The position numbers were made by a program, and so were the translations under genes. Shown here in pieces: positions 1,245 to 22,986 of a stretch of 43,791 nt of DNA; the stretch's first letter is position 1, and each line of letters starts with the position of its first letter. Below the pieces are notes generated by a model. The model did no database searches. It had not been told where the DNA came from and was given only the letters and a program-made list of their open reading frames with translations. This DNA comes from a virus (lineage: Duplodnaviria; Heunggongvirae; Uroviricota; Caudoviricetes): IMG/VR virus record IMGVR_UViG_648861009_000009; one strand, 5' to 3'.

Positions 1245-2402
1245 ATGCTCACCGTTAAGCAGATTGAAGCAGCAAAGCCGAAAGAAAAACCATACCGCCT
1301 TCTCGATGGTAATGGCCTGTACCTTTATGTCCCTGTGTCAGGGAAAAAGGTATGGCAGCTTCGCTACAAGATTGACGGTAAGGAGAAAATCCTGACCGTC
1401 GGGAAATATCCGCTTATGAGTTTGCAGGAGGCAAGGGATAAAGCATGGACCGCGAGGAAAGACATCTCGGTTGGCATCGATCCGGTAAAAGCGAAAAAGG
1501 CTTCGTCTAACAACAATTCCTTTAGCGCCATTTACAAGGAATGGTACGAGCACAAGAAGCAAGTATGGTCAGTAGGGTATGCGACTGAACTTGCAAAAAT
1601 GTTTGATGACGACATTTTACCTATCATCGGCGGCCTTGAAATTCAGGATATTGAGCCGATAAAACTGCTGGAAGTAATCCGCAGATTTGAAGATCGCGGT
1701 GCAATGGAGCGAGCCAACAAAGCCCGCAGAAGATGCGGAGAGGTTTTCCGTTACGCTATTGTCACTGGTAGGGCTAAATATAACCCGGCACCTGACCTTG
1801 CTGACGCCATGAAGGGATACCGCAAGAAGAACTTCCCGTTTCTCCCAGCAGACCAGATCCCTGCATTCAACAAAGCACTGGCAACATTTTCAGGAAGCAT
1901 CATATCGCTCATTGCGACCAAAGTTTTACGCTACACAGCCCTAAGAACGAAAGAGCTTCGCTCCATGCAATGGAAGAACGTCGATTTTGAAAACAGGATT
2001 ATCACTATCGACGCCAGTGTGATGAAGGGCCGCAAAATTCATGTGGTCCCGATGTCAGACCAGGTGGTTGAACTTCTCACTACGCTAAGCTCAATCACCA
2101 AACCAGTCTCAGAGTTTGTTTTTGCCGGGCGCAACGATAAGAAGAAGCCAATCTGCGAGAACGCGGTTCTACTTGTGATCAAACAAATCGGCTATGAGGG
2201 TCTGGAAAGCGGTCACGGATTCAGGCATGAATTCAGCACGATTATGAACGAGCACGAATGGCCTGCTGACGCTATTGAAGTGCAACTTGCACATGCCAAC
2301 GGCGGATCTGTGCGTGGAATTTACAACCATGCTCAGTATCTCGATAAGCGCAGAGAAATGATGCAGTGGTGGGCGGACTGGATTGATGAAAAGGTGGGCT
2401 AA
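1245..2402 (+). CDS. intS: Tyrosine integrase IntS-type
   Basis: ORF 1209-2402 (GTG at 1209); ATG at 1245 gives MLTVKQIEAAKPKEKPYRLLDGNGLYLYVP matching remembered K-12 IntS; adjacent to argW. Confidence 0.88.
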   Translation: MLTVKQIEAAKPKEKPYRLLDGNGLYLYVPVSGKKVWQLRYKIDGKEKILTVGKYPLMSLQEARDKAWTARKDISVGIDPVKAKKASSNNNSFSAIYKEWYEHKKQVWSVGYATELAKMFDDDILPIIGGLEIQDIEPIKLLEVIRRFEDRGAMERANKARRRCGEVFRYAIVTGRAKYNPAPDLADAMKGYRKKNFPFLPADQIPAFNKALATFSGSIISLIATKVLRYTALRTKELRSMQWKNVDFENRIITIDASVMKGRKIHVVPMSDQVVELLTTLSSITKPVSEFVFAGRNDKKKPICENAVLLVIKQIGYEGLESGHGFRHEFSTIMNEHEWPADAIEVQLAHANGGSVRGIYNHAQYLDKRREMMQWWADWIDEKVG

Positions 2403-2793: not shown

Positions 2794-4930
2794 GAAACTT
2801 CCCCATTGGTTGAAAATATGGCTCCTCCAACTCCAAGTGTATTTCGTGTTGTGCTCAACCTAAGAGGGCTGGAGTCAGAATTAGAATATCCTGTAGCAGA
2901 AATAAAAGATCCTCCACTAATAGTCAACTGCGGAACATCGGCTATATCTGAATAAGTTCTGTCAGCAACAGTATTATTTATAGCCACATGTGATCCAAAA
3001 AAACTTCTTATTGTTTGGTTTTTAACTTTACTTCCTTCAATGGTTATCCTACTACCACAGTCAGCAATAAATCCTGAATCTGCATCCAGCGTTGCATTCA
3101 TAAAAGAAGCTTCAGATCTCTCTACATCAATCCATCTAATATCTTTTGTGGGATTTGCACCAAATACATGACAAATATTAGAGTTAAACCTTACACCATC
3201 TTGGAGGTGCATTAATTTTTTTATATCTGTACCCCATAGCCTTGGAAAATTAACAGATGCTCCTGCATGGCAATCAAATCCCAACTCAGCCCCTGAGATA
3301 TCTACAGCCTTTCCTGAAATAACAGCACCAGTGTCTGCATTAACGGCTGTTCCACAATTGCGCATATCATTACCAGCAATATCAACACAACTCGCACCAT
3401 CAATACGCACACCAAGTGCACATCCATAAAAACCTTTTTCAATATTTGGTTCAAGGACTTTACCACTTGTTTCTGCATCACTTTCTTCAACGTCATGTCG
3501 TCTTGCATCAACATATGCTGTATGAATGCAGGTTAATCCACGATATGAGCAATGTATAGTTTTATGGTCGCGTATATTAACATTTNNNNNNNNNNNNNNN
3601 NNNNNNNNNNNNNNNNNNNNNNNNNNNNNNNNNNNNNNNNNNNNNNNNNNNNNNNNNNNNNNNNNNNNNAACCATCTCTTACATTCCATCCTATATAACA
3701 ATAGCTTGCACTTGACCCCTGAAAATCTGCTTTAACATTATAAATACAATTAACTGACGCAACCGTACTCTCTGTGCACCGTTCAAACTTGCTTACAGGC
3801 ATTGATGCCTTGACATTATTTACCAGTTGCAGGGAAGAGTATCTGCTATAAGAAAAATCACATACGTAATACCCTTCTGGCATATATGCAGCAACACTTT
3901 CCTCATCAGGAGCACATCCGGTATGATATGCACTAATTTTTGCACCAAAGCTACCATGAATTCCAACGTAGAACTTTCGAGCACCTGAATACGGATAGAA
4001 ATTAAGTTCAGCTTTTTGAGTTACAATAAATGCACAAACATCGCTATCATCTCTATTTTCTTCAATCTGAATAGCAAATACAGGACTTTTTGCTGCATCG
4101 CAAATGTAAAATAAATATTTGTATTCGTAATACGTCCTAACAGTTTTAGTAAACAAACTGGTATCAGAGAAAACCACTGAGTCTTCTGATATTATTTTAA
4201 TCCATGATAAGTCACATCCTGCTGAAATTTCTATTTGCTCATTGAGCACAAAACCGGAAAGAATTTTAATTATGCAAAAGTCAATGCCATTTTTCCATAG
4301 TGGACGCAGTGCAACAGCCGAGTTTAGAGCATCACTAATAGATTTAAAATTACCATATTCCCCAACTGTTATTGTGAATGCATACCTGGAATTAAATACT
4401 GCGGCACTCTCTCCAGAGTTAATAGCTGCAGATATCATGTCATAATTTGATATAAAATCATTTGGCGTGATTATTTCTGCGTTTTTATTGTGCTGTGTTC
4501 TAAGTTTTGAATTTACATGAACACTTTTAACTGCAATACGGGAGTCGTCAACAAGTATTTCATTACCCTCTGTTGCTAACTCTTGTCTTAACTGATCCGG
4601 GTCATACTTCAGCACATTCGGAAAATTGAACTGCTGTGCACCATACGCATCATAAACAGCCATAGAATGGCCTTGCTCAGTTACGAATTTGGCAATCTGT
4701 CCGTTATATACAGGGTAACCAGCAGCGTTAATGATGATTGGTTGCGATACAGGAACGTGAGAACCGTCTTCATTCTCCACATAAACCTGAATCTGGTTTT
4801 CAGGATTTACAGGGTCAGTGTCAATTTTTCCGATATAAATTTTGCCATTGGCAACCGCTTTAAAAGAACGTGCCATAGTGAAGAGTTGCGAAGGCATCGA
4901 TACGATCACATTGGCTGTAATGTCTGTCAT
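2790..4930 (-). CDS. Tailspike protein, P22 gp9-type N-terminal head-binding domain plus distinct receptor-binding domain; interrupted by assembly gap
   Basis: N-terminus [43 protein letters not shown] matches P22 tailspike; ORF spans N-run 3586-3669. Confidence 0.85.
3586..3669. other. Assembly gap (84 N) inside tailspike gene
   Basis: Run of N. Confidence 0.95.
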
Positions 4931-5108: not shown

Positions 5109-6032
5109 TCAGTAGTTATGTACTGAAGGAGGTAATTCTTTATTCTTAAGTCTCATCCATGCTGAAAGATTCGTTGGTCCGTCTGGCTCATTAATATCAA
5201 CATCTCGTGTATGGTTGATTAAAACATCTCTCGCCATATCGATAATACGGGAGAACTCATAACCGCAGTCATGACATCTGCCGGAATAGTTCGATTGAAT
5301 TTGTTTTAATGCCGGATACAGTTCGCGGAATAATGCCTGTGAGCGGTTGGCATAATCCCATAACCATACAAGGCTGTTTGCTTCTTTTGCAGAAAGCTCG
5401 TTTGCTTTCTTCTCTTGTTTGCCAATGAACTCACCTTCAAGTGGAACTCGAGCTGCAAGTGACAGTGCTTCTGTAAACTGCTCCTCACTGATTTCTTTGT
5501 ACGAACATCCAAAATGGGATTTCAGTGACGACCACATGGTGATCATCGCCTTAGCCTGTTTTTCTTTTGGCAGAGACTGACCGCGACTCATGACGAGTTG
5601 TTTAATGGCTTCCTGCTGTTCAGTGGTAATTTTACCCGGCAACGCCTTTTTAGCTTTGCGTGGGTTAACTACATGGCCTTTAGTCCAGTACTCGTATAGC
5701 ACATCGTCACACTCTTCCTGATACTGGATTACCTTGTCGCGGATTTCAGGACGGACTTTGTTTGGTTGAATACTTGAAAGCCAAGCCGCAAATTTACGAA
5801 AGGCAAGACATGTCATTAACTGTTTACCGCCAGCAGAAGGTATTTCGATTTCCGAAATACCTTTGGCAAACCTCTGTTTTAACTTAACAAATTGAGCTGC
5901 CCAAACCATCCCCATGCCTTCAACAACAGGCTTCATAGGAACATAAGGCTCATTGTTAATTCCAACCAAAAAAAGATTTGTTCCGTGGAATGGAACATTG
6001 ATTGTGCGATCTGCAATTGCTAAACTAGTCAT
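5109..6032 (-). CDS. ant: Antirepressor Ant (AntA N-domain type)
   Basis: 307-aa ORF at the immI position adjacent to tailspike, downstream of arc-like gene; RBS AGGAA. Confidence 0.75.
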   Translation of the reverse strand: MTSLAIADRTINVPFHGTNLFLVGINNEPYVPMKPVVEGMGMVWAAQFVKLKQRFAKGISEIEIPSAGGKQLMTCLAFRKFAAWLSSIQPNKVRPEIRDKVIQYQEECDDVLYEYWTKGHVVNPRKAKKALPGKITTEQQEAIKQLVMSRGQSLPKEKQAKAMITMWSSLKSHFGCSYKEISEEQFTEALSLAARVPLEGEFIGKQEKKANELSAKEANSLVWLWDYANRSQALFRELYPALKQIQSNYSGRCHDCGYEFSRIIDMARDVLINHTRDVDINEPDGPTNLSAWMRLKNKELPPSVHNY

Positions 6033-6033
6033 G

Positions 6034-6110
6034 TCGTTAATTCCTATGCGTGGTTTTACGATACCGAAGCCCTGACTGTTCCTGCAGTTGGGGCTTCACT
6101 GTTTTGATTT
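6034..6110 (+). ncRNA. Candidate sar-like antisense RNA complementary to the ant RBS/start
   Basis: Plus-strand -35 TTGATT (5998-6003), 17-bp spacer, -10 TAAACT (6021-6026); hairpin 6066-6097 then U-rich tract; ~75 nt. Confidence 0.35.
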
Positions 6111-6265
6111 CTTTGCCGCATCAAGCATCACTTCTGAAAACGTGCGCTTGCCACTGAATACTCTTTCTCTTCTCAATTTTTCGTTCGCGCCAAATGATTC
6201 GCCATGAACAAAATTTGGTCTCAAAATGGTAAGCACAATCTCTTTGACTACTGCATCCAAGCAAA

Positions 6266-6406
6266 TCACACTGTTACCCCCTCCCTCTTCAGGCTGTCCA
6301 GCACCCGTTTAATTACTTCTGCACTGAATGAGCGACACTCTTCCTTTGCTTTTTCTTCAAGAATTTTTTCTAGCTTCTCTGGCATACGCAGTGTTTTAAC
6401 CTTCAT
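6266..6406 (-). CDS. arc: Arc-like ribbon-helix-helix repressor
   Basis: 46-aa ORF MKVKTLRMPEKLEKILEEKAKEECRSFSAEVIKRVLDSLKREGVTV; RHH pattern like P22 Arc; RBS GGAGGA; upstream of ant; below ORF-track cutoff. Confidence 0.6.
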   Translation of the reverse strand: MKVKTLRMPEKLEKILEEKAKEECRSFSAEVIKRVLDSLKREGVTV

Positions 6407-6511
6407 TGTATCCTCCGTTGTATGTGGTACGCATACATAGTATTTAGGTACGCATTGATAGTCAATAGATACCTACATATCCTGTGGTAAAAAATTATTC
6501 AGGATGCGCCG
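6407..6511. promoter_or_regulatory. immI divergent promoter/operator region
   Basis: Direct repeats GGTACGCAT at 6426-6434 and 6447-6455 (21-bp spacing); TGTGGTA at 6423-6429 and 6483-6489. Confidence 0.4.
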
Positions 6512-6676
6512 ATGTCTGATCGTAAGTACAAAAACCCTCAAGTGAATCTGAGGCTTCCTGTAGAGATAAAGGAACGTCTTATTGAACTGGCTGAGGCTAA
6601 TTCTCGTTCATTAAATGCTGAGATGGTCGCGGCACTTGAAGCGTGGACCGAAAAAATAAACACATTCAAGCACTAG
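6512..6676 (+). CDS. mnt: Mnt-like RHH repressor, apparently truncated (C-terminal domain in -1 frame to 6759)
   Basis: 54-aa ORF MSDRKYKNPQVNLRLPVEIKERLIELAEANSRSLNAEMVAALEAWTEKINTFKH divergent from arc; downstream frame encodes LATIASRLIDLEHDVETLKTMYGKDK. Confidence 0.55.
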   Translation: MSDRKYKNPQVNLRLPVEIKERLIELAEANSRSLNAEMVAALEAWTEKINTFKH

Positions 6677-6761
6677 ACCTTGCAACTATAGCATCACGAT
6701 TGATAGATCTTGAACACGATGTTGAGACGCTAAAGACCATGTATGGTAAGGATAAATAAAT

Positions 6762-7636: not shown

Positions 7637-7864
7637 ATGAAGCAATGGCTCATCATAATTGCTGTTTTTTTGCTCATTTACACTGTTTTCCCAACATTAA
7701 AAGCACCAATGCAAATAATTTCACTGGCAATAATTGCGATTGGTGCTTTCATTGCTGTAGCCGTACTTGTGTTTAAGGTTTTAAAGTTTTTAGTTTGGCT
7801 ATCAAAAGATGATGGATGCAAAGTTCATCAAGAAAAAGAAGGCAAAATAACCAAAGTTGACTAA
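7637..7864 (+). CDS. Small 2-TM membrane protein
   Basis: 75-aa ORF, RBS GGGAGG, two hydrophobic helices, charged C-terminus. Confidence 0.5.
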   Translation: MKQWLIIIAVFLLIYTVFPTLKAPMQIISLAIIAIGAFIAVAVLVFKVLKFLVWLSKDDGCKVHQEKEGKITKVD

Positions 7865-22702: not shown

Positions 22703-22986
22703 AACCTCGTCTAGTTGTTCGCCATAGATTCAGTGGCAGGCGGTGACGAGTCCGCTTTTCGGGAGCTACCCTAGCCACTGCTTGATTCTATCCGATGTCT
22801 TTCCATCAGTCCGCCACCACAAAGAATCTTTTTTGCCATAAGGCTGGAGGTTCATCTTTCAGTGGCTGCCAGTGTTATTTCCCCACTTTCTGGCTTGGGT
22901 TGTTTCGCTGTACTGCCGCAACTGGTTGCCCAGAATAAATTCCGGTTTCATTATCAAGCCCACCCGTAGATAGGCTTTGTAATGAC

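Follow-up and report, generated by a model that had tools for sequence, protein, structure and literature searches.

The plus strand of the window (the whole stretch of phage DNA analysed here, 43,791 nucleotides in length) very probably carries, from 6033 to about 6105, the sar gene of a P22/CUS-3-like prophage, which encodes a cis-antisense RNA of about 70 nt that would block the translation of ant. We identify it as sar on the grounds of its homology, position and fold, of covariation and strand bias, and of its conserved promoter and gene context; that the RNA is produced and that it blocks ant translation would follow from the published work on P22. sar is among the early antisense RNAs described in phages. 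The family to which the element belongs, as an ordinary member, is curated and experimentally characterised, and we therefore regard the element as already known.

According to the initial annotation of this DNA, the ant ribosome-binding site would be covered by a sar-like antisense RNA. An Rfam scan of the window bore this out. The sar family (RF00262) matched 6034-6100 (+) with a score of 73.8 bits (E 1.2e-13). The match covered the model over its full length (positions 1-68 of 68) and exceeded its gathering score, which is 43 bits. For reference, the sar sequences of P22 and CUS-3 score 97.8 bits and 84.6 bits with RF00262. Our own covariance model (R1) matched 6033-6106 at 90.6 bits.

The gene that had been named as the target is a real ant. 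It encodes a 307-aa antirepressor (5109-6032, minus strand, with the ATG at 6032-6030), which contains the Pfam domains P22_AR_N (8.1e-40) and P22_AR_C (1.3e-27) and matches PHROG 245, 'anti-repressor Ant' (7.5e-94). We observed that the sar element lies antisense to the ant leader, that its predicted 5' end adjoins the ant start codon and that the Shine-Dalgarno sequence of ant is covered. The initial annotation had described this as the same relative position as that of P22 sar. We found it to be so for Psar, for the sar RNA and for the terminator, all of which match the annotated P22 placement relative to the ant start codon. In the P22 record (BK000583), sar is annotated at 15021-15090. 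In the coordinates of our P22 locus (L002), Psar lies at 1484-1512, the sar RNA at 1519-1588 and the sar terminator at 1551-1588, with the ant start codon ending at 1518 and the arc stop at 1587.

The predicted sar RNA (6033-6105, +; about 70-73 nt) has its 5' end placed by homology to P22 sar and its 3' end in a U run, and it folds into two stem-loops. Hairpin I (6033-6062), which was found by folding, has the closing stem GUCGU.UA / UUACGAU and lies over the complement of the ribosome-binding site. Its apical part contains UUCCU (6041-6045, read directly from the sequence), the minus-strand complement of which is AGGAA, the ant Shine-Dalgarno sequence, 8 nt upstream of the ant ATG. Hairpin II (6066-6097, +) was found both by a terminator scan and by folding. 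It is a terminator stem of 14 bp with the loop UCCU; it holds 7 G-C pairs, and is followed by ACUGUUUUG. Three of its pairs are G-U, and these would be A-C mismatches on the strand of the ant mRNA. The terminator ends with the U run UUUU (6102-6105), which was read directly and also reported by the terminator scan. The scan reported this combination of hairpin II and a T run on the plus strand only.

A hairpin followed by a U-rich tract about 70 nt from the start had been noted in the initial annotation. The hairpin and the UUUU stood, while the likely 3' end moved to 6102-6105 from the 6110 given there. When the 76-nt RNA was folded, its energy was -30.6 kcal/mol, in comparison to -15.3 +/- 2.7 kcal/mol for shuffled sequences (z -5.7), and none of the 200 shuffles was as stable. 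On the Rfam match and the fold energy, the element as a whole is beyond chance. We also considered whether the hairpin could be the terminator of an upstream gene on the plus strand. This was rejected, since the plus strand in that region is antisense to ant and to the tailspike gene. Upstream of the hairpin, the list of plus-strand ORFs has only short ones (30-109 aa), all of which lie inside these two genes.

Psar is predicted to lie in the first codons of ant and to read away from it. The promoter-like sequence that had been pointed out earlier (TTGATT, 17 bp, TAAACT) was present in all its parts, as read directly. The -35 hexamer TTGATT (5998-6003, +) matches TTGACA at 4/6 positions and falls inside ant codons 10-12. 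A spacer of 17 nt (6004-6020) separates it from the -10 hexamer TAAACT (6021-6026), the complement of which encodes Ser3-Leu4 of ant. The -10 is additionally extended by TGc (6018-6026 with the hexamer), and it aligns with the annotated Psar -10 of P22. After the hexamer come AGT, then CAT (6030-6032, +), which is the complement of the ant ATG, and then G6033. With a start 7 nt past the -10, the predicted first base is therefore G6033, which adjoins the ant start codon as had been proposed.

The promoter hexamers alone did not exceed chance. They match at 8 of 12 positions, which is under the cut-off of the promoter scan, and this is why Psar is missing from the list of sites; at the cut-off of 9/12, the scan of the region found 4 sites, and 4.5 were expected from shuffles. 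As the hexamers alone are insufficient, homology and conservation carry the claim for Psar. When 57 distinct upstream contexts were scanned automatically, TGn preceded the best-scoring -10 in 51, with a few of the picks lying elsewhere than at the homologous site. At this site, the hexamers include TATACT, TAAACT, TACACT, TACAAT, TAAATT and TAAGCT, all of which retain T1, A2 and T6. Across the homologues, the distance between the motif TGnTAnnnT and the ant start codon is constant. The ant codons under the -10 vary (Ser-Ile, Ser-Leu, Ser-Val, Ile-Val and others), and a motif that stays fixed while the underlying codons vary points to selection on the promoter itself.

The -10 of the window (TAAACT) has 4/6 matches, versus 5/6 for the TATACT of P22, CUS-3 and TL-2011b. 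A -10 with one match fewer than in the closest relatives might be taken as the sign of a relic, i.e. a sar-derived sequence that is no longer usefully transcribed or relevant, in an immI region that is decaying. The whole 621-nt region is also absent in one piece from complete E. coli genomes, where the best match has 81% coverage. We consider a relic unlikely, however. TAAACT is a recurrent natural allele, which was also found in three other IMG/VR contexts, and the whole promoter sequence of the window is identical in the Stx phage YYZ-2008. Stx-phage records match the stretch at 97.4%. T1, A2, T6 and the TG extension are all in place in the window. The two hairpins are intact as well, and so is the U run, which is longer than that of P22 (the tail is ACUGUUUU in the window and AACUUUA in P22).

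The genes around the element bear on the same question. They form an immI-type setting, in which Ant is accompanied by Arc, encoded upstream in the same operon, and by a divergent Mnt. The first gene of the ant operon (6266-6406, -) encodes an Arc-like ribbon-helix-helix repressor of 46 aa (Pfam Arc PF03869, 3.4e-08). Between arc and ant lies an ORF of 57 aa and of unknown function (6096-6269, -), which matches PHROG 17642 over its full length (6e-40) and has no Pfam match. At its start, a GTG, it overlaps the arc stop (GTGA), and its stop codon (6096-6098) is located within the 3' arm of the sar terminator. In the window, the 3' end of sar overlaps the stop of this extra ORF and not the arc stop, whereas in P22 it is the arc stop that is overlapped. 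A counterpart of the 57-aa ORF is annotated in phage phiv205-1; no gene between arc and ant is annotated in the P22, epsilon34 and TL-2011b records. The promoter scan also gave a Pant-like promoter, TTGACT-17-TACTAT (6465 to 6437, -), and a Pmnt-like promoter, TTGATA-17-TATCCT (6455-6483, +). These two sites overlap face-to-face (6437-6483), in the same arrangement as the annotated Pant and Pmnt of P22, and they lie around a candidate operator, an inverted repeat of 18 nt (6441-6479).

The Mnt-like repressor (6512-6676, +) has 54 aa, and is shortened in comparison to CUS-3 mnt. We observed that an A run in the gene (6651-6656) has six bases in the window and seven in CUS-3 mnt, and that the gene (6512-6759, +) appears frameshifted. 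The C-terminal part that is missing from the 54-aa product continues in the other frame (6643-6759). This one-base change could be a real inactivation, or it could be a homopolymer sequencing error. Owing to the apparent frameshift, the immI region could be decaying, which would favour a relic. Against this, the reading frames of ant, arc and the 57-aa ORF are open, and the mnt change itself may be no more than an error in the A run. The annotation of the element as sar marks the ant of this prophage as under the usual three-layer control by Mnt, Arc and sar; should mnt truly be frameshifted, Ant would be held back in this prophage by sar and Arc alone.

We further compared the fold of the element across its homologues. 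IMG/VR was scanned with a hairpin II pattern, which returned 120 loci. With the phage records added, the set comprised 76 distinct sar sequences and 40 distinct hairpin I sequences. When the 40 hairpin I variants were folded alone, without any alignment, every one of them formed a stem that closed at or near the first base. Most of them have a pyrimidine-rich CCU or CUCC toward the apex, which is likely to be the anti-Shine-Dalgarno sequence. A plain MAFFT alignment of the diverse sar sequences was discarded, since it misaligned hairpin I, and this alignment-free folding was used instead, along with a covariance-model alignment. The covariance model was built from nine sequences and used to align 45 distinct homologues. 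Standard pairs were seen in 95.5% of the cells, in comparison to 35-42% when the partners were slid by 1-3 columns, and both sides had changed in nine pairs, including 7/7 of hairpin I; these counts come from an alignment fitted to the model structure, which favours that structure. None of 500 shuffles reached the observed pairing values. The near-invariance of hairpin II is in part by construction, since the search pattern that yielded most of the homologues required hairpin II.

A hairpin on one strand always has its mirror image on the other, and the selected structure might be that of the ant mRNA leader (minus strand), for example a hairpin hiding its own ribosome-binding site, with the plus-strand RNA being incidental. 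The ant leader can form a weaker version of the fold (-20.6 kcal/mol). The two strands can be told apart by their G-U pairs, each of which counts as standard on its own strand but not on the complementary one, and here many of them are standard on the plus strand only. In hairpin I, 89.9% of the cells were paired on the sar strand and 67.2% on the ant-mRNA strand; in hairpin II, the corresponding values were 98.3% and 78.7%. The mean fold energy was -30.5 kcal/mol for the sar strand and -21.2 kcal/mol for the ant-mRNA strand, with the sar strand being the more stable in 45/45 variants. The minus strand also has no U run after the hairpin. This asymmetry in pairing and stability indicates that the fold belongs to the plus-strand RNA and not to the ant leader; we rejected the structure as a feature of the ant mRNA on these grounds, and consider such a reading hardly credible. 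For the sar RNA, the comparison modestly strengthens the case for the published structure and indicates that its fold is selected on the sar strand.

The likeness of the element to P22 sar extends to most of its parts. The geometry is the same (promoter inside ant, start adjoining the ant ATG, antisense to the ribosome-binding site), as is the layout of two hairpins, and the two belong to one family by the covariance model. Two loop bases of hairpin II differ between P22 and the window, and nothing else does in this hairpin. The -10 regions are one base apart (TTGCTAAACT in the window, TTGCTATACT in P22), and the TG of the extended -10 is at the same place in both (TGcTATACT in P22). The -35, however, is TTGATT in the window and GTGTTA in P22, so that in comparison to P22 the -10 of the window is one match weaker and its -35 one match better. 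Hairpin I differs in sequence, since the ant leader differs, and its pairs are compensated (GUCGUUA/UUACGAU in the window, GUUGGU/ACUGAC in P22). The N-terminal coding region of ant differs in length between the two, and the cutting of the Mnt homologue to 54 aa is a further departure from P22.

The E. coli phages CUS-3 (CP000711) and TL-2011b (NC_019445) have sar homologues as well, which are unannotated in their records. Hairpin I of CUS-3 is identical to that of the window, and that of TL-2011b differs at three positions. In the alignment, the window, CUS-3 and TL-2011b fall into one hairpin I class, and P22, epsilon34 and phiv205-1 into another. A common promoter architecture, TTGAT[AT], 17 nt, TGcTA[TA]ACT, is found in CUS-3, TL-2011b and the window, the first two having TTGATA at the site of the TTGATT of the window and TATACT as the -10. 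The ant and mnt genes of the window are CUS-3-like. To the right of the hairpin, CUS-3 and TL-2011b have other DNA, without the 57-aa ORF, whereas the right-hand flank of phiv205-1 is of the same type as that of the window.

This exchange of flanks is seen throughout the homologues. At the window (6063-6100) and the homologous loci L001-L125, we counted 22 types to the left of hairpin II (the ant side) and 26 types to its right (the arc side), which occur in 49 combinations with 29 four-gamete cases. The window is itself a mosaic, with an ant side of a type that is also found in Stx phages and a right side of the phiv205-1 type. The flanks reassort freely, with hairpin II as the mosaic joint between them. 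In the CUS-3 record, the stretch is labelled 'bsq2; boundary sequence', and the conserved hairpin might accordingly be seen as mainly a structural or recombination element (a 'boundary sequence' for module exchange, or a hairpin that stabilises or processes RNA) and not as part of a regulatory RNA. We find this very improbable. It leaves unexplained the promoter at its fixed distance, the covariation of hairpin I with an anti-Shine-Dalgarno sequence near its top, and a U run that is confined to the plus strand. Moreover, a role in recombination is compatible with sar function, and is not an alternative to it. As a sar gene, the element accounts for a seemingly gene-free, highly conserved stretch, which is unlabelled or called 'boundary sequence' in phage records.

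The sar family could be broader and more modular than the Rfam model, with a constant hairpin II joint and with re-paired classes below the threshold, but we hold this only tentatively and think it rather doubtful. The constant terminator hairpin may serve as a joint at which phages exchange ant modules and arc/mnt modules with one another. Further sar classes may also exist in which hairpin II is re-paired and the score is too low for the Rfam threshold, as beside the ant genes of Stx phages.

Two other loci were noted during this comparison. In the Stx-type phage YYZ-2008 (FJ184280; L126), ant is 93.5% identical to that of the window and Psar has the identical sequence. A sar-like RNA lies at 1274-1345 (+) of this locus, with a hairpin II that has diverged but is re-paired (GAAGCCUCAAUGGU / GCCAUUGAGGCUUC, then GCUGUUUUU). 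It scores 36.3 bits with our own model, and RF00262 does not report it at the gathering threshold. One IMG/VR contig (L020) has two minus-strand sar-like elements, at 1629-1703 and 2573-2649, with a distance of about 945 nt between them. Each lies where a plus-strand ORF begins; this suggests that ant-like genes occur there in tandem, every one with its own antisense RNA.

Other cis-antisense RNAs that cover a ribosome-binding site are IS10 RNA-OUT, P22 sas and the OOP RNA of lambda and P22. The principle that they share with sar is that of a short, structured antisense RNA which pairs with the translation start of its target (for this working principle, see the reviews PMC5415839 and PMC7968456). 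They have no sequence or structural relationship to the sar of the window, and none of IS10 RNA-OUT, sas and OOP was matched in the Rfam scan of the window.

If the element works as in P22, RNA polymerase would start at the TG-extended -10 promoter inside the first codons of ant, transcribe away from ant over its Shine-Dalgarno sequence and leader, and stop at the 14-bp hairpin and the U run. According to the 1987 papers on P22, Psar reportedly fires effectively after Arc shuts off the converging Pant. The product would be a two-hairpin RNA. By construction, its complementarity to the ant mRNA is perfect and extends from the base that precedes the AUG, over the Shine-Dalgarno sequence, up to and including the stop codon of the ORF upstream. 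Pairing would hide the ant ribosome-binding site, so that no Ant would be made from leftover Pant transcripts or from late-operon read-through, and the prophage repressor would thereby be protected during the establishment and maintenance of lysogeny. In P22, sar pairs with the ant ribosome-binding site and blocks Ant synthesis (PMC7968456, PMC13397905), and sar reads were detected during P22 infection (PMC13397905). The late promoter also transcribes arc and ant (PMC12111858), and since Pant and the late promoter both do so, a block of Ant by sar matters. Beyond its correct annotation, the element in the window matters little, as it is a textbook regulator.

The immI block of the window lies between a large ejection/DNA-transfer-type gene (7861-9984, -) and the tailspike gene (3533-4930, -). 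This location inside the late operon, between ejection-protein and tailspike genes, is common to P22 and the window, and the immI 'ant moron' of P22-like phages is described in the same late-operon setting (PMC2629481). In the tailspike-like ORF, undetermined bases at about 3580-3670 (X in the translations) interrupt the C-terminal part. A tRNA-Arg gene (anticodon CCU; 1009-1083, +), which is possibly the attachment site of the prophage, lies about 2.4 kb away from where the tailspike gene ends. Elsewhere in the window, the int-alpA RNA (RF02996) was matched at 22719-22781 (-) with 45.1 bits, in comparison to a gathering score of 35.8.
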